A DNA stretch of 64,000 nucleotides from Candidatus Latescibacterota bacterium (GTDB lineage: Bacteria > Latescibacterota > UBA2968 > UBA8231), in the NCBI GenBank assembly GCA_965215195.1, contig CBDCDC010000002.1, positions 3,904,001 to 3,968,000 of the forward strand, written 5' to 3'. This document shows positions 535-12,567 of this stretch, in pieces; within the stretch, counting starts at the first letter, position 1, and every line of letters starts with the position of its first letter. The notes beneath the pieces were generated by a model that was not told where the DNA came from, made no database searches, and saw nothing but the letters and a program-made list of their open reading frames with translations. The position numbers and the translations under genes are program-made.

Positions 535-2232
535 ATGAACCTGCTATGGTCCTTGTATGCCGGCCTAGTCCTCGCCGCTTGTGCAAAGGATGCCGAGGAA
601 CTGGAAGATCCCGTGCTGGCCGCAGTGGGGGATCGCCGGATAACGGCCTCTCAACTGATCGACTTTGAACAGCGCCTGCCGGCGCAGCTAAAAACGCAGA
701 AATCCGGCTTGGACGGCTACCGCGACTACCTACAGACGATCATCGACAAGGAGATTTTCCTCCAAGAAGCGCTCAAAAGGGGGCTTGACGAGGTGCCGGA
801 GGTGGCGCAGAAGCTGCGCAAGGAAAAGGCCGAACGGGTGTTGCGGCTGTTGTTCGAGCGCGAATTCCTCGCCAAAGTCCGCGTCGATGAGCAGGAATTG
901 CGGGCGGCCTACGAGGCCGCGGACAAGGAGCGCGAGGTCAAGCTGCGCCTGATTATCGTTGCCACGCAGGCCGTCGCCGAGGATATCCGGCAAAGCCTTG
1001 CCGACGGGGAGGATTTCACCGCCCTGGCGCTCAGCCGCTCGCTGCACCAATCAACGGCACCGCAGGGTGGGGAATTGGACGGCTACCTGACCGCCAAGCG
1101 CATTCCGATCTACCTGCAAGAATACATAAACGCGCTGGCAGTCGGCGAGTACTCCGAGCCGATTCGCCTGCCCAACGGCCAGTTCGGGATCTACCAAGTC
1201 ATGCACGCCCGGCCCGTGAGTTTTGCCACCGCGAGCAACGCGCTGGAGGCCGAGCTGCGCGAGGAAAAGACGACCGCACTGATAGAGGCATTCTCGGCGC
1301 AACTGCGGGCCGACCTCGACTTGCAGGCCAACAGCGAGACTTTGCAGCAGTTACAGCAATGGGTCGCGGCCGGGCGCAGAGAGTATAACGCCGCAGAACG
1401 CGCCGGGGTACTTTTTCACTTTCGCGGCGGCCGTGTCTCGGTAGGCGATTTCTGGGATTACGCGGACGAGTTGGACATGGGGTTTTCGGGCGACATTGCC
1501 GAGTCCGTGCGCTGGTTTGCCGCAGACGTGCTGCTGCCCCGCACCTTGTTCCTGCACGTGGCCTATGAAAGGGGGATTGACCGCGAAGAGCAGATTGTGC
1601 GCTGGTATCAGCGCCGCAAAGACGCCCTGTTGCTGTTGGCGCTTAGGCAGACGGCGGTCAAGGACCAAATCCATATCGCGCCGGAAGCCGTCAGGAAACT
1701 ATACGACGAGCGGCCCGAGTTGTTCACCGCACCGGAGGAAGTCACACTGCAGGAGATCATGGTGCAAACTCGGGAAGAGGCCGTGGCGATCAGAGAGCGG
1801 ATTGAGGCCGGTGAGGATATGGGAGCACTGGCCAACGAATACACCTTGCGCGCGGCGGGCAAAGGCGCACAAGGCACATTCCACATCCACGCTTTTGAAC
1901 AATCCTTCTACCGAGAATTGATCGACGCGGTACACAGCGCCGAGATCGGCCGGTTGTACGGCCCGGTCGCGGTGACGGCGCAGCCCGCCCAAGTGGTCGG
2001 CCCGGAGGCCATGCCGCGGGGCGGCGAGTACTATTCGGTGTTCAAGGTGTTGGAGTCGAATTTCGGCAGTGTCCCCGAGCCTTTTGCCACCGCGGCGAAG
2101 CGGGCGCGGGCGCTGTTGAAGCGCGCCGAGGAGGGCCGCTTGGCGGATGCGTTTTTGATGGGATTGCGGCGGGAGTACGAAGCGAGGGTCGTCGTGTATG
2201 AGGACCGTCTGAAGACGCTGTTGCCGCAGTAG
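535..2232 (+). CDS. PpiC/parvulin-type peptidyl-prolyl isomerase lipoprotein (PrsA/SurA-like, two rotamase domains)
   Basis: Lipobox LVLAAC. Two rotamase-like segments: GEDFTALALSRS...GGELDG and GEDMGALANEYT. Confidence 0.85.
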   Translation: MNLLWSLYAGLVLAACAKDAEELEDPVLAAVGDRRITASQLIDFEQRLPAQLKTQKSGLDGYRDYLQTIIDKEIFLQEALKRGLDEVPEVAQKLRKEKAERVLRLLFEREFLAKVRVDEQELRAAYEAADKEREVKLRLIIVATQAVAEDIRQSLADGEDFTALALSRSLHQSTAPQGGELDGYLTAKRIPIYLQEYINALAVGEYSEPIRLPNGQFGIYQVMHARPVSFATASNALEAELREEKTTALIEAFSAQLRADLDLQANSETLQQLQQWVAAGRREYNAAERAGVLFHFRGGRVSVGDFWDYADELDMGFSGDIAESVRWFAADVLLPRTLFLHVAYERGIDREEQIVRWYQRRKDALLLLALRQTAVKDQIHIAPEAVRKLYDERPELFTAPEEVTLQEIMVQTREEAVAIRERIEAGEDMGALANEYTLRAAGKGAQGTFHIHAFEQSFYRELIDAVHSAEIGRLYGPVAVTAQPAQVVGPEAMPRGGEYYSVFKVLESNFGSVPEPFATAAKRARALLKRAEEGRLADAFLMGLRREYEARVVVYEDRLKTLLPQ

Positions 2233-2391
2233 GCAGAGCGAGTCATTGCCATTAGCCTTTGTGTGGGTTAGCTTCTAGCCTTCATTTATTGAATGTCTTT
2301 GCACTAGATTTCTGCTCTAATCATCTTTCGGCAAATCATTGGCGATCTGTGCTTAGAAGAAGACTTACAGATAAAACAAAATGGAGAAAGA

Positions 2392-4647
2392 ATGACACAA
2401 CAATCGGACATTATCCAAGAGACACTCAAAGATAGCAATTATCATCTCGGCTTGTTCAAAGAAGATGAAATTGCAACTCTGTGCCAAAAGGTCTTTATCA
2501 AAATGACCAGCACAGGCAAGAAAATTCCCTATGTGAAGTGTATTGTGCGGGGCAAGGATATTCAACTCAAGCCGGAAGAAATCGTCCGCCAACTCTACGC
2601 AAAGAGACTTATCGATCAGTATCGCTATACCAAAAATCGGTTGGGTTTTGAATACCCGGTTAGCTTTGGGCGCGAAAAGAAAAAGGCCGATATTGTCATT
2701 TTTGATAAAGACCGGCCTGATACAGCCTATATCATCGTTGAAGTAAAAAAGCCCAAACTCAAAGATGGAAAAAGCCAGCTTCGATCCTATTGCAACGCCA
2801 CAGGTGCGCCGATTGGCGTCTGGACGAATGGAGAGCAAATTTCCCATTACCACCGCAAAGACCCCAATTACTTTGAAGACATCACCGATGTTCCAAATAG
2901 CGAGCAAAGACTTGAGGACATTCTCAGTGAACGCTTTACACTCAAAGACTTAATCACCAAGGATAAGATCGCCAATGAGCGAAAATCTCTCAAAGATATT
3001 ATCCTCGAAATGGAAGATGAAGTCTTGGCAAATGCCGGAGTAGATGTATTCGAGGAGCTTTTCAAGCTCATATTTACCAAGCTCTACGACGAGTTCCTTA
3101 GCCAAGACGATAAGGAATTCATCAATCGTTCTATCCGTCGTGCTATATCAACTGTTGTTAGTGAGCCAAAACAACAAGGCCGCCTTGATGGACAGAATTA
3201 CGATGTCCTCAAGGCAGAAGTCGAAAAAATCCCAGACTACTACTTTAGGGTAATGGAGTTCAGAAACACCGGACAGACTGATACGGAGCTCAAGGACAAA
3301 ATACAAAGCCTGTTCGATAAGGCAAAAAAGAAGTGGCCAGGTGTTTTTCCAGAAGGCTCTACATTTGATCTTTCAGACAGCCACTTATCCGTCTGCGTGT
3401 CCAGTTTGCAGGATGTCAAATTGTTCAACTCCAATTTACTGGTCGTGGATGAAGCATTTGAATATCTGGTCAACAAATCTGCTAAAGGCGAAAAAGGACA
3501 ATACTTTACGCCTCGTCATATCATTGATATGTGCGTACAAATGCTCAATCCACAACCCGGCGAATACATGATTGACACCGCCTCCGGCAGTTGCGGTTTC
3601 CCGGTGCATACTATCTTCAAGCTCACTGGACACCTGTTTGGCAATTCGGATATAACAGATAAAGAAAAAGAGAATGTGCTGAAAGTATTTGGCATAGACT
3701 TTGACGAAAAAACAGTCCGTGTTGCTCGCACTCTGAATCTGATTGCAGGAGATGGCGAAACCAATGTTTTGCACTTGAATACTCTAGACTTTGAACGCTG
3801 GCGAGATAAGACCAGAGATACAAATTGGATCATAACCTATGGCAAAGGTTTTGAACGACTGGAAAAACTGCGAACTAAAAAAGACCAAAACAAGCGGTTT
3901 AACTTCGACATCTTGATGGCAAACCCGCCCTTTGCAGGAGACATCAAGGAAGGTCGCCTTTTGCATCAATACGAACTCAGTTTTAAGGCAAACGGCAAGG
4001 CGCAAAGCAAAGTCGGGCGCGATATACTGTTTATCGAGCGCAATCTGGACTTTCTCAAACCCGGTGGACGTATGGCGATTGTGCTGCCACAGGGCAGATT
4101 CAACAACACATCTAATAAATACATCCGAGAGTTTATCGCAGATCATGCTCGCATCTTGGCTGTAGTTGGGCTACATGGCAATACTTTTAAGCCGCATACG
4201 GGCACCAAGACCAGTGTGTTGTTTCTGCAAAAGTGGAATAATGACCCGGCAAAAGGGCCGCTTTGTCCCAGAGTAGATGACTATCCCATCTTTTTTGCTG
4301 TGAGTGAGAAGGGGGGAAAGGACAACTCCGGCGATTATATCTATCTCGAAGATAGAAATGGACAGGATAAGTTGGACAGAAACGGCCATCTAATTGTTGA
4401 CCACGATTTGCACAATCACGATGGAGAGTTGCCCGATGGAATAGCAGAGGCGTTTATTGCGTGGGCTAAAAGTGAAAAGCTGAGCTTCTGGAGAGTTGAA
4501 GAAGATAGGCTTGACAACAAGAGGCGTAAGGCATGGCAGAACATTATCAACAGTAATCGCAATCGGCGGCTTTATGTTGATCCCAATATCGACATTTCCC
4601 GCTTGGCCGACGAAATGAACGATGTGGAAATGGAGTTTGATGGGTGA
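2392..4647 (+). CDS. Fused restriction endonuclease (HsdR_N-like PD-(D/E)xK) and N6-adenine DNA methyltransferase, type IIG/IIB-like, with an extra C-terminal tail
   Basis: N-terminal PEEIVRQ...ADIVIF...IIVEVKKP. MTase motifs GQYFTPR, IDTASGSCGF and NPPF. AT-rich relative to flanks. Confidence 0.9.
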   Translation: MTQQSDIIQETLKDSNYHLGLFKEDEIATLCQKVFIKMTSTGKKIPYVKCIVRGKDIQLKPEEIVRQLYAKRLIDQYRYTKNRLGFEYPVSFGREKKKADIVIFDKDRPDTAYIIVEVKKPKLKDGKSQLRSYCNATGAPIGVWTNGEQISHYHRKDPNYFEDITDVPNSEQRLEDILSERFTLKDLITKDKIANERKSLKDIILEMEDEVLANAGVDVFEELFKLIFTKLYDEFLSQDDKEFINRSIRRAISTVVSEPKQQGRLDGQNYDVLKAEVEKIPDYYFRVMEFRNTGQTDTELKDKIQSLFDKAKKKWPGVFPEGSTFDLSDSHLSVCVSSLQDVKLFNSNLLVVDEAFEYLVNKSAKGEKGQYFTPRHIIDMCVQMLNPQPGEYMIDTASGSCGFPVHTIFKLTGHLFGNSDITDKEKENVLKVFGIDFDEKTVRVARTLNLIAGDGETNVLHLNTLDFERWRDKTRDTNWIITYGKGFERLEKLRTKKDQNKRFNFDILMANPPFAGDIKEGRLLHQYELSFKANGKAQSKVGRDILFIERNLDFLKPGGRMAIVLPQGRFNNTSNKYIREFIADHARILAVVGLHGNTFKPHTGTKTSVLFLQKWNNDPAKGPLCPRVDDYPIFFAVSEKGGKDNSGDYIYLEDRNGQDKLDRNGHLIVDHDLHNHDGELPDGIAEAFIAWAKSEKLSFWRVEEDRLDNKRRKAWQNIINSNRNRRLYVDPNIDISRLADEMNDVEMEFDG

Positions 4648-5048
4648 TTTACATCGATACAGATGTCTTGGTCAATGCCTATGTTGTTCAGGATATTGCT
4701 AAAAATCGACAAGCTAATCAGCTCATTAAGCAAGCAAATGACAACGATGTTGCGATCATCTCAACGCTTAGTGTTCAGGAATTGTTATTTGTGCTTGCAA
4801 AGCTGGACATTCAAGATGAAATTATCCACAGCGTTTATAACGAAGTCATGCAACTAGAGCCTCTTGCCTATGACATAGAAACTCTACGAAGGGCGTTTGA
4901 TATAGCAAATCGCATCGGATTCAGAAACATCAATGACTGTATTCATACGGCGATTGCTGAACAGCATTGCACGGAACTGATTACCTACAACAAGACAGAC
5001 TTCAGCAAAATCAAAGAAATTACAACGGTTAACTTGATGATACTGTGA
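4644..5048 (+). CDS. vapC: PIN-domain (VapC-like) ribonuclease toxin
   Basis: IYIDTDVLV, SVQEL, INDCIHTAIA and ITYNKTDF give the PIN acidic motifs. GTGA overlap with the upstream stop codon. Confidence 0.88.
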   Translation: MIYIDTDVLVNAYVVQDIAKNRQANQLIKQANDNDVAIISTLSVQELLFVLAKLDIQDEIIHSVYNEVMQLEPLAYDIETLRRAFDIANRIGFRNINDCIHTAIAEQHCTELITYNKTDFSKIKEITTVNLMIL

Positions 5049-5070
5049 CGAAGTAAATGAGGAGCTAAAG

Positions 5071-6495
5071 ATGCAGTATTCGATTGTCAAATTGAGTGAA
5101 ATAGAATCTATATCTTCACGACTTGATGCGGAGTACTATAGTTCAATTTTTCTTAAAACAGAAAAACAATTAAAATGTGGTAGTTGGGATTATTTAGAAA
5201 ATTTGGTGGAGTCCATAAAGAGTTTTGGATCATACTCCCTTTGTAATCAAATTGAATACACCGAGATTGGCATCCCATTCCTTAGAGCAAAGGATATAAA
5301 AGCGGGACTTATTGATTTTTCAGACGTACTGTATATCAGCGATGAAAAGAATGAGCTTTTATGGAAGTCAGAAATTAAACCAGAGACTGTCCTACTTACT
5401 ATGTCAGGCACTATTGGCAACTCATCAATAGCAACAAAAGAAATAAACTATCCAATAAATTCAAGTCAAGATATTGCAAAAATAATAACTAATCAGAGAC
5501 TCAACCCCTATTATCTTTCAATTTTTCTTCAGTCAATTTATGGAAAAAGGCAAATGTCTAGGATACCGATAGGAAGCGTACAGCAATACATATTTTTATG
5601 GCAGCTTGAAAAATTACTTATTCCTGTGTTTGGAAACGAAATTCAATCAAGTATAGAGAATGCTTTCAAATTGATGTTATCAACTAATAAAAAAGCTAAC
5701 AATGTCTACAACCAAGCCCAAACCCTTCTTCTATCCGAACTCGGCCTTGCCGACTGGCAACCCAAACACCGCCGAACCTTTGTCAAAAACTATTCCGATA
5801 CTCAACGAGCCGAACGCATTGACGCCGAGTATTTTCAGCCGAAATACGAAGAAATCGTCTATGCCATCAAAAGTTACGCGGGTAGATGGGAGACGCTGGG
5901 AAATCTGGTGACAATAAAAAAATGCGTAGAGGTGGGAAGCAAAGAGTACCTCACTGAGGGCATACCCTTCGTACGAGTGAGCAATCTAAGCCCATTTGAA
6001 ATCACAGAAGAAAAATACATTTCCGAAGCGTTGTATGCGGATCTCGTTAAACATCAACCCGAACAAGGCGAGATACTATTCAGCAAAGACGCAACACCCG
6101 GCATAGCCCATTATTTGCGGCAACAACCCCCAAAAATGATTCCTTCTGGTGGCATACTCCGATTAAAAAGCAAAACAGATAAAATCGCTAATGAGTACCT
6201 GACGCTGGTGCTTAACTCACTACTAACAAAAGAACAAGTCAATCGCGATGTCGGCGGCTCAGTGATTCTACATTGGCGATCAGATCAAGTGCAGGGAACA
6301 GTTATTCCCATTCTGCCCATAAAAAAACAAACTCAAATACAGCAAAAAGTTGCTGAATCTTTCAACTTGCGAAATCAGTCTAAGCACCTGCTGGAATGCG
6401 CCAAGCGAGCAGTGGAAATAGCAATTGAGCAGGGCGAACAAACAGCGATTGATTGGTTGGAAAAAGGAATCCAACCAAGACGAACATCATTTTGA
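5071..6495 (+). CDS. hsdS: Restriction-modification specificity subunit (two target recognition domains)
   Basis: Two related halves start RLDAEYY and RIDAEYF, with GIPFLRA and GIPFVRV motifs. GAGGAG RBS upstream. Confidence 0.88.
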   Translation: MQYSIVKLSEIESISSRLDAEYYSSIFLKTEKQLKCGSWDYLENLVESIKSFGSYSLCNQIEYTEIGIPFLRAKDIKAGLIDFSDVLYISDEKNELLWKSEIKPETVLLTMSGTIGNSSIATKEINYPINSSQDIAKIITNQRLNPYYLSIFLQSIYGKRQMSRIPIGSVQQYIFLWQLEKLLIPVFGNEIQSSIENAFKLMLSTNKKANNVYNQAQTLLLSELGLADWQPKHRRTFVKNYSDTQRAERIDAEYFQPKYEEIVYAIKSYAGRWETLGNLVTIKKCVEVGSKEYLTEGIPFVRVSNLSPFEITEEKYISEALYADLVKHQPEQGEILFSKDATPGIAHYLRQQPPKMIPSGGILRLKSKTDKIANEYLTLVLNSLLTKEQVNRDVGGSVILHWRSDQVQGTVIPILPIKKQTQIQQKVAESFNLRNQSKHLLECAKRAVEIAIEQGEQTAIDWLEKGIQPRRTSF

Positions 6496-6697
6496 AAGAG
6501 TGACTGGCGACACTTATGCGATTGTCATACACACAGGCAGAGGGTTAATCGCCAGTTATGCTGTTAGAACTCGGGTTGAAAAACTGCGAGATATTTGGCT
6601 GCATTGAGCAAAAAGTATCCCTGTCCAATCCAGCGCACTAGGCTTGAGAAGGATACAAACGGCAGTTCATTCGCTTCGTTTCTGAGGAGGACCAGTC

Positions 6698-11895: not shown

Positions 11896-12567
11896 ATGAG
11901 CGAAAGTGCCGATCCCCAAACCCGTGCGATCCCCAAACCCGAAGAAATGCCTTGGGTCATTAGCTATCTGCACAACGACATTCAAGACCTACGTCGAGAC
12001 CTGCGCACCCAAGTAGGGGCCGTCAACAACCGCATTGACGAGACCAACCGCATATTGAGCGAACAGATTCATGAGACCAACCGCGTGTTGAGCGAACAGA
12101 TTCATGAGACCAACAACCGCATTGACGAAACCAACCGCGTATTGAGCGAGCAAATTCATGAGACCAACCGCGTATTGGGCGAACAGATTCATGAGACCAA
12201 CAACCGCATTGACGAGACCAATCGCGTATTGGGCGAGCAGATTCATGAGACCAACCGCGTGTTGAGCGAACAGATTCATGAGACCAACAATCGCATTGAC
12301 GAGACCAACCGCGTATTGAGCGAGCAGATTCATGAGACCAACCGCGTGTTGAGCGAACAGATTCATGAGACCAACAATCGCATTGACGAGACCAACCGCG
12401 TATTGAGCGAACAGATTCATGAGACCAACAACCGCATTGACGAGACCAACCGCGTATTGAGCGAGCAGATTCGCGCTGTCCACAAGCGCATGGACACCTA
12501 TTTCCTGTGGATGATGGGCACGTTGGTGGCCATCACCGGCGTCCTCATCGCCGTCATCAAGCTCTGA
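11896..12567 (+). CDS. Coiled-coil repeat protein with C-terminal membrane anchor (DUF1640/CCDC90-like architecture)
   Basis: Repeated NNRIDET and NRVLSEQIHET units, C-terminal TM YFLWMMGTLVAITGVLIAVIKL, GAGGAG RBS. Confidence 0.8.
   Translation: MSESADPQTRAIPKPEEMPWVISYLHNDIQDLRRDLRTQVGAVNNRIDETNRILSEQIHETNRVLSEQIHETNNRIDETNRVLSEQIHETNRVLGEQIHETNNRIDETNRVLGEQIHETNRVLSEQIHETNNRIDETNRVLSEQIHETNRVLSEQIHETNNRIDETNRVLSEQIHETNNRIDETNRVLSEQIRAVHKRMDTYFLWMMGTLVAITGVLIAVIKL
12025..12471 (+). repeat. Intragenic composite tandem repeat of 21-nt (A) and 33-nt (B) units: ABB x4, AB, AB'
   Basis: A = aacaaccgcattgacgagacc; B = aaccgcgtattgagcgaacagattcatgagacc. Copies differ by a few substitutions. Confidence 0.95.

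Follow-up and report, generated by a model that had tools for sequence, protein, structure and literature searches.

We analysed a 64,000-nucleotide (nt) stretch of the genome of a Candidatus Latescibacterota bacterium (GenBank assembly GCA_965215195.1, contig CBDCDC010000002.1, positions 3,904,001 to 3,968,000; the whole stretch is called the window below). It holds a restriction-modification (RM) locus in which a gene for a PIN-domain protein of the VapC toxin type lies between the genes of the nuclease-methyltransferase (the MTase, or M subunit) and of the specificity (S) subunit. The MTase runs on past the point where related enzymes end, into a tail of 51 residues that resembles the toxin-binding end of an antitoxin and whose stop codon overlaps the start of the PIN gene. 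In our judgement this locus is probably a VapBC-type toxin-antitoxin (TA) module built into a type IIB-like RM system, where it would serve addiction and abortive infection. RM proteins that hold a toxin silent are already known, and what is new here is the hard-wired coupling of RM enzyme to toxin through a recognisable and portable antitoxin peptide. Two old questions are touched by this arrangement, namely why TA genes sit in RM loci and how toxins without a visible antitoxin stay silent there.

Results

Architecture of the locus

The MTase, PIN and S genes are co-directional within an island of low guanine-cytosine (GC) content. The features are listed with their window coordinates, the strand and the basis of each assignment; ORF stands for open reading frame.

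2250..6600, no strand: low-GC island, ~34-47% GC against ~57-64% in the flanks, holding three genes only (composition profile)
2392..4647, + strand: bifunctional nuclease-methyltransferase (type IIB/BsaXI-like RM subunit), 751 residues including the tail (ORFs, Pfam, conservation)
2572..2895, + strand: HSDR_N_2 (PD-(D/E)xK-type) nuclease domain, MTase residues 61-168 (Pfam PF13588, E 1.6e-26)
3445..4245, + strand: N6-adenine methyltransferase domain, MTase residues 352-618 (Pfam PF02384, E 3.3e-33)
4492..4644, + strand: antitoxin-like tail, MTase residues 701-751 (homology, co-occurrence with PIN, predicted binding)
4510..4620, + strand: tail residues 707-743, predicted to contact the PIN protein (complex prediction)
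4632..4647, + strand: translational coupling site, with GGAG at 4632-4635, the PIN start GTG at 4644-4646 and the MTase stop TGA at 4645-4647 (sequence)
4644..5048, + strand: PIN-domain (VapC-like) protein, 134 residues, GTG start (Pfam PF01850, E 1e-13)
5071..6495, + strand: specificity (S) subunit, 474 residues (NCBIfam and PADLOC type I S-subunit models)

An earlier reading of this DNA, made from the sequence alone, had given the order as nuclease-MTase, GTGA-coupled PIN gene and S gene, and had described an MTase extension of about 50 residues with no start of its own and no separate antitoxin ORF. All of this agrees with the gene boundaries. The PIN start overlaps the MTase stop by 4 nt in the GTGA, with a GGAG eight bases 5' of it; the tail begins directly after ...AEAFIAWAKSEKLSFW and makes up the last 51 residues of the nuclease-MTase; between MTase codons 681 and 737 there is not a single in-frame ATG, GTG or TTG, and the ORFs of the island are the three genes only. 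An internal start for the tail was considered at the nearest in-frame TTG, codon 680, and rejected, the GGAG that lies 2 nt upstream of it being too close for a typical ribosome-binding site.

The fusion itself is genuine. A missed stop or start at the junction had been named as one way in which the sequence-only reading could fall, and it was checked against contigs of three public runs from three studies (one of which may be the window's own source). These span 4200-5300 without an indel, and the fusion recurs in many homologues; it is therefore not an assembly artefact, and sequencing error was ruled out on the same two grounds. As a separate observation, the contig of one public run (X3) carries T>A at 4641, changing D750 of the tail to E, and A>G at 4729 in the PIN gene, with the frame kept.

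No direct repeats were found flanking the island at its borders. Neither promoter-like sites (4 observed, 8.7 expected) nor terminator-like sites (5 observed, 4.3 expected) give a signal above chance.

The tail among methyltransferase homologues

The best 120 homologues were taken for a query consisting of MTase residues 560-751. Among them 25 end 0-6 residues past an LSFW motif, 3 are intermediate and 92 have a tail of at least 30 residues, a share that overstates the frequency of the tail because the query contained it. The statement in the sequence-only reading that related MTases end near LSFW is borne out by the 25, and the alignment of homologues identifies the LSFW end as the tail-less form and the tail as an add-on. 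The match to the 672-position PADLOC model MTase_I (PDLC03034) runs to residue 701 and then ends. Conserved tails are ~45-50 residues long. They open with a variable charged linker of about ten residues (~701-711), followed by a conserved segment with the pattern R-R-x-A-W-x-x-F, then N-N-R-x-R, then Y-V-D-P-D-I-D-I-S-x-L-x-D-E-M-N-D.

A FastTree phylogeny was built from 112 of the 120 listed proteins after removal of the tail columns, leaving out 8 rows shorter than 650 or longer than 800 residues. At least 5 switches between the tail-bearing and the tail-less state are required, in an unrooted tree and a sample biased towards tail-bearing forms, and for these two reasons the phylogeny gives no firm number of independent fusions. 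Sixteen of the 22 tail-less rows stand on one side of a supported branch, and the other 6 are nested among tail-bearing rows. This pattern fits one or few gains of the tail followed by several losses.

Co-occurrence of the tail and the PIN gene

A genome scan collected 80 loci around MTase relatives (in 5 of them a gene is cut by a contig end), and all six frames were searched for the window's four parts. A PIN gene is present in five loci (L001, L002, L016, L018 and L025), with the tail directly upstream in each and the tail's stop overlapping the PIN start by 4 nt (ATGA, GTGA or TTGA). Approximately 70 of the 80 have an LSFW-ending MTase, and these show no PIN gene within up to 6 kb. The MTase of L025 lacks the tail, which there extends the S subunit beyond its normal C-terminal end, ...AIAWLEAK, and is then followed by PIN; the S subunit is thus a second carrier for the same tail-PIN module.

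In the window's phylum the PIN gene was found in 5 of 168 genomes, and the four intact copies all have an MTase with a tail upstream. A further close copy of PIN (G275) and a metagenome contig (L081) share the MTase-tail-PIN layout. Taken together, every one of the nine distinct close-family PIN loci read as DNA has the tail upstream, eight times on M and once on S. Wider PIN searches gave little (2 of 176 and 2 of 401 genomes, besides the 5 of 168), and the PIN family is rare in the genome groups searched. As a proxy at the level of protein clusters, 22 of the 92 tail-bearing MTase clusters match one of 120 listed PIN clusters in the exact size of the longest contig, against none of the 25 tail-less ones. 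That the tail might be a normal C-terminus with no link to PIN had been put forward as a possible refutation. The loci read as DNA, in which the two co-occur, contradict it.

In the fifth of these genomes of the window's phylum (L110 in G089, 852-3098) a C-terminal remnant of PIN, residues 102-134, lies upstream of an S gene beside an IS200-like ORF and another transposase-like ORF; this is a decayed copy of the locus.

Free-standing relatives of the tail

Searched alone against Pfam, NCBIfam and PADLOC, the 52-residue tail gave no significant match, the only NCBIfam row being noise (PRK06882, E 0.16), and its link to antitoxins was derived from gene context and custom profiles. When metagenomes were scanned with the PIN alignment, 25 loci came up with PIN proteins of 23-73% identity, several of the loci being near-duplicates of each other. 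An upstream ORF could be read in 22, and in 14 of these its C-terminus matches the tail profile; L081, with its M-fused ORF of 751 residues, accounts for one, and the other 13 are short ORFs of 51-114 residues. The motif is visible by eye in 6 more upstream ORFs (L087 and L093-L097), and the last 2, which are without it, belong to the most distant PINs (29% and 23% identity) and have unrelated upstream genes. The sequence-only reading had suggested a search for stand-alone matches of this kind and had given a motif for short genes that precede this PIN subfamily, and such genes, with the motif, were found.

A profile of fused and free tails (A5) was then compared with 1.84 billion representative proteins at E <=1e-3. 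It gave 46 matches, of which 31 were inspected; two candidates, P0278 and P0289, are repeat proteins and were judged spurious. Most of the other inspected matches are proteins of 43-117 residues that differ in their N-termini and end in the motif. The N-terminus of P0283 is a MazE_antitoxin (MazE/AbrB) domain (35.8 bits against a cut-off of 24.7) and that of P0295 is RelB-like (27.2 bits against 27). DUF2281 matches in seven tail-profile proteins are sub-threshold, as are both the DUF2281 and the NCBIfam TA_VapB matches of P0138.

Type II antitoxins usually join a common toxin-binding end to interchangeable DNA-binding heads. The available part of the NetFlax paper likewise describes 'linear neutralisation' segments joined to globular domains (PMC10440598). 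On homology and the structure prediction below, we take the tail to be the neutralising segment of a VapB-type antitoxin, with the RM enzyme apparently replacing the DNA-binding domain. At the level of sequence, the matches show an antitoxin neutralising segment that behaves as a portable peptide, one that evolution appears to have attached to unrelated carriers.

The PIN protein and its predicted complex with the tail

The PIN protein matches PF01850 with 52.4 bits against a cut-off of 23.6. Its gene is single-copy in its own genome, and residues D5, D7, E46, D98 and D119 are invariant in 24 sequences. It has no close relative in the PDB by sequence, the nearest being PcrIIC1 (E 0.004).

Modelling of tail and PIN together, which the sequence-only reading had proposed, was carried out with PIN (24-sequence alignment) and MTase residues 699-751 (30-sequence alignment) in three runs with 3 controls. 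The median score of the predicted complex was 0.76 and that of the best control 0.00; the score expresses model confidence, to which the good representation of VapBC-like complexes in the PDB may add. Of 157 solved complexes 116 come up to the score mark, as do 2 of 215 mismatched pairs, a calibration that is rough since custom alignments were used. At least 89% of contacts are common to the runs, with a local confidence value (pLDDT) of at least 71 for the partner. Tail residues 707-743 are predicted to contact PIN residues 6-7, 10-17, 21-32, 46, 67-72, 94-97, 115-116 and 119, an interface that includes or adjoins the invariant D5, D7, E46, D98 and D119. Contacts at or next to these acidic residues support, within the limits of a model, binding of the tail over the PIN active site.

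Shortened derivatives of the fusion

A number of natural products of decay keep the tail in frame. P0266 (62 residues) is MTase residues 1-22 joined in frame to the tail, P0275 (240 residues) joins MTase residues ~1-190 to it, and P0273 (266 residues) joins an internal MTase piece. A class of 70 residues (P0123, P0127, P0129, P0130, P0133 and P0136) consists of MTase residues ~165-190 plus the tail, and P0121, P0122, P0124-P0126 and P0128 start at internal methionines shortly before it. Judged from sequence, these in-frame products are as expected were translation of the tail required for as long as PIN is there. They also qualify the claim that the antitoxin is made only as part of the RM enzyme: this stands for intact loci such as the window's, and it fails for the family as a whole because the decayed relatives encode the tail in short ORFs. 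Separately, P0265 (75 residues), in which the tail is joined to the S C-terminus, and the long chain P0038, described further below, resemble deletions that took out the PIN gene.

Cargo between the M and S genes

Tail-less relatives often have other genes in the M-S slot, including MazF/PemK, RhuM, DUF4145, a YhcG nuclease, a Pycsar cyclase with PycTM, Schlafen/AbiU2, an AAA_15 ATPase and Fic. In three loci (L004 8091-8617, L006 8091-8617 and L009 7855-8396) a small ORF starts at the MTase stop and is followed by a MazF/PemK gene. The head of these small ORFs, LPxxAxxEVYDFxLF, is DUF2281-like by eye and has no Pfam match, and the pair of small ORF and MazF/PemK is a separate-gene counterpart of the fused tail-PIN module. 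With the M-S slot filled with other cargo in relatives, it is plausible that the fusion arose from an inserted antitoxin-PIN pair, the antitoxin having lost its head and the tail having joined M in frame.

The Pycsar-like pair (cyclase domain plus PycTM effector) was seen between M and S of the related RM locus L072 (2511-3830). In L045 (1-5727) and L062 (5959-8808), MTase relatives are fused in one frame to half an S subunit (~residues 226-464), and L045 has three MTase genes in tandem.

The RM enzyme and its class

Residues D100, E117 and K119 of the N-terminal nuclease domain and the motif N511-PPF514 are invariant among the MTase relatives, the nuclease residues in tail-bearing and tail-less forms alike. 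Among solved structures the best sequence match is to RM.BsaXI, a type IIB enzyme (8w0p, E 3.5e-20), and it is confined to MTase residues 436-618. The S subunit is recognised by PADLOC Specificity_I models down to E 8.7e-44, and by the NCBIfam type I S-subunit model PRK09737 at E 2.1e-15 with 56.5 bits, far under the curated cut-off of 662. By sequence we file the locus as a two-subunit, type IIB-like (BsaXI/BcgI-like) RM system of nuclease-methyltransferase plus S. Since M keeps its nuclease domain, restriction has probably been retained. Membership of the MADS system was considered and rejected, MAD2 scoring 297.8 bits against a cut-off of 720 and MAD5 192.4 against 400, in an island of three genes only.

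Outside the island, at window positions 11896-12567 on the + strand, there is a 223-residue ORF made almost entirely of tandem NRIDETNRVLSEQIHETN-like units, with a hydrophobic C-terminal end and a mirror ORF on the opposite strand.

Discussion

A proposed TA module built into an RM enzyme

The reading we favour is that only the C-terminal, toxin-neutralising segment of the antitoxin remains, joined by a short variable linker to the end of the nuclease-MTase. The RM protein would take the place of the antitoxin's DNA-binding domain, and PIN would be kept on the RM complex with its active site covered, as homology and structure prediction suggest. The tail has no start of its own, and the antidote therefore needs unbroken translation of the whole 2.1-kb RM frame. 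The primary effect would be addiction to the RM gene and to its reading frame: if the locus is lost, or if the MTase suffers a nonsense or frameshift mutation, PIN would go free, leading to RNA cleavage and cell arrest. A secondary effect would be an abortive-infection backup, should a phage halt synthesis of the RM protein or destroy it. Gene loss, frame disruption, proteolysis and phage anti-restriction proteins could all act as triggers of PIN release. Of the original interpretation the structural part has stood up, that is, an add-on tail that is linked to PIN, homologous to antitoxin-like C-termini, predicted to bind PIN and without a start of its own; the functional part we infer.

Going one step further, we tentatively suggest that the locus combines a 'frame guard' and a guard in one, such that the PIN RNase would be unmasked and the cell stopped by any of three events: a nonsense or frameshift mutation at any point of the RM gene, disappearance of the locus, or a phage that destroys or blocks the RM protein. 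This fuller version is possible, although we would not bet on it. If it is true, a TA pair next door would shield the RM gene from decay much less tightly than this fusion, and the only survivors would be in-frame deletions with the tail kept, in agreement with the decay products found in nature. A cell wired in this way could also detect an attack by phage on its restriction enzyme. The module has changed carriers between M and S, and this suggests a general means of making any protein 'addictive'. In uncultured bacteria the family is widespread, with many titled records coming from sponge-associated lineages, and as a compact three-gene system it makes the RM enzyme as antitoxin, the guarding of a reading frame, and a PIN backup against phages that disarm restriction directly testable by ordinary cloning.

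Several observations weigh against the built-in TA module. The tail on M is less common than the homologue list would suggest, being found in only 4 of the 80 loci of the genome scan, which was made with whole methyltransferases. In P0038 (1225 residues) MTase, tail and S form one chain with no PIN between, and in genome G168 an orphan MTase C-terminus with a tail fragment (L035, 3334-3618) exists where no PIN gene was found; the tail can thus outlive the toxin for some time. For the decay derivatives, a neighbouring PIN gene is indicated solely by a longest contig equal in size to that of PIN clusters (P0121, P0122 and P0125). The fourth classical acidic position of the PIN domain is N116 in this family, so catalytic competence of the toxin is assumed. 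The caution attached above to the complex score belongs here as well.

Alternative explanations

A live alternative shares the architecture entirely and differs in the trigger alone. It supposes an RM-enzyme guard like that of PrrC or Ronin, in which anti-restriction proteins (DNA mimics such as Ocr and ArdA, or Stp-like peptides) would bind or distort M or S and release PIN, with abortive infection as the outcome. There is precedent in Ronin, where according to the available part of the preprint Ocr, ArdA or Aop1 free RonA from HsdMS (10.1101/2023.04.06.535777), and the tail is carried by one or other of the two targets of anti-restriction proteins, M (8 loci) or S (L025). Tail-less relatives, moreover, have other defence cargo in the M-S slot (MazF, RhuM, DUF4145, YhcG, Pycsar, AbiU2 and Fic). 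However, the sequence offers no link between binding of the tail and the cleft with which the M/S complex binds DNA, the variable and probably flexible linker argues against tight allosteric coupling, and the stand-alone relatives of the tail presumably act as ordinary type II antitoxins. On balance we think this trigger rather unlikely, while noting that it is not exclusive of the built-in TA module and could operate alongside it.

The tail might also be a docking peptide and PIN a working accessory nuclease subunit, for example one cutting phage RNA or DNA at restriction sites, in place of an inhibited toxin. Such a tether would indeed hold PIN at the RM enzyme, and section 17 of the PIN survey of 2017 considered that PIN nucleases might be restriction modules and noted PIN+HsdM+HsdS operons without a clear restriction enzyme (PMC5499597). 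Yet the MTase has a nuclease domain of its own, with D100, E117 and K119 kept whether or not a tail is present, and tail-less relatives are complete systems without PIN. That the tail is homologous to antitoxin-family proteins at their C-termini, and that the predicted interface covers the catalytic pocket of PIN, also speaks for inhibition, and we regard docking as improbable. Least credible, with hardly any chance of being right, is the idea that the tail is an ordinary C-terminus of an MTase subfamily, used perhaps for S-subunit binding, with PIN adjacent by coincidence, or else a product of sequencing or assembly error. The conservation of the tail across many MTases and its presence without PIN in P0038 would suit an ordinary C-terminus. 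Against it are the strict tail-PIN co-occurrence in loci read as DNA, the same tail on the S subunit of L025, and the same motif at the end of small antitoxin-like genes upstream of PIN relatives; error is countered by the indel-free junction in contigs from three studies.

Comparison with known systems

As an RM system the locus is like the type IIB enzymes BsaXI and BcgI in having the nuclease domain and a gamma-class N6-adenine MTase in one subunit, and in its separate S subunit, related to type I HsdS. It differs in that the match to BsaXI is limited to MTase residues 436-618, in a locus known here from sequence alone, and to our knowledge no described type IIB enzyme has a tail or a PIN partner. 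As a TA system it resembles VapBC. Both have a PIN-domain toxin whose acidic residues are conserved and, directly upstream, an antidote coding sequence whose stop overlaps the toxin start by 4 nt. The short C-terminal stretch predicted to neutralise PIN also occurs on stand-alone antitoxins with MazE/AbrB, RelB-like and DUF2281-like N-termini. In contrast to VapBC, the window locus has neither a separate antitoxin gene nor an antitoxin DNA-binding domain, the putative neutralising segment being an extension of an 86-kDa RM enzyme (of the S subunit in L025). Without a separate DNA-binding antitoxin, the usual autoregulation and a labile free antitoxin are therefore not expected.

The closest analogues of the fused system are PrrC-EcoprrI and Ronin. 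PrrC is an anticodon nuclease kept latent by the type Ic RM enzyme EcoprrI, and its trigger is the Stp peptide of phage T4. In both PrrC-EcoprrI and the window locus an RNase toxin gene lies among RM genes and is silenced, in our case by proposal, by an RM protein and not by a dedicated antitoxin gene. However, PrrC is an anticodon nuclease of the ABC-ATPase type, whereas the window toxin is a 134-residue PIN protein; EcoprrI is a classical three-subunit type I enzyme, whereas the window island has no HsdR gene; and in PrrC-EcoprrI no recognisable antitoxin segment is fused to the RM enzyme. The Ronin preprint, in its available part, names PrrC-EcoprrI as a further RM-held toxin, and reports that HsdMS, with no HsdR, suppresses the tightly linked RonA, a small membrane toxin of 61 residues (10.1101/2023.04.06.535777). 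Suppression of a tightly linked toxin by M and S subunits is also what we propose here. The differences are that RonA is a small membrane protein whose mode of suppression, as far as that part of the preprint goes, is not known, whereas the window has a PIN RNase and an antitoxin peptide carried covalently on M (on S in L025), and that the window M keeps its nuclease domain.

Embedded defence genes have been described for Hachiman, in the part of that preprint available to us (10.1101/2024.01.29.577857), and the cargo in the M-S slot of tail-less relatives is comparable to such accessory genes within RM and defence operons. There the cargo consists of separate genes, whereas the window RM protein has absorbed part of it. 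Full-text literature searches turned up no account of an RM subunit with an antitoxin segment fused to it, although Supplementary Figure S7 of the 2017 PIN survey (PMC5499597), which lay outside the search, may show operons of this PIN family. Section 17 of the survey lists three PIN+HsdM+HsdS operons, does not speak of a fusion, and notes that PIN genes are coupled to RM subunits and that 'in some cases' the 'antitoxin elements' are 'missing' (PMC5499597). With the antidote forming part of the RM protein itself, as we propose, the 'missing' antitoxin would be explained.

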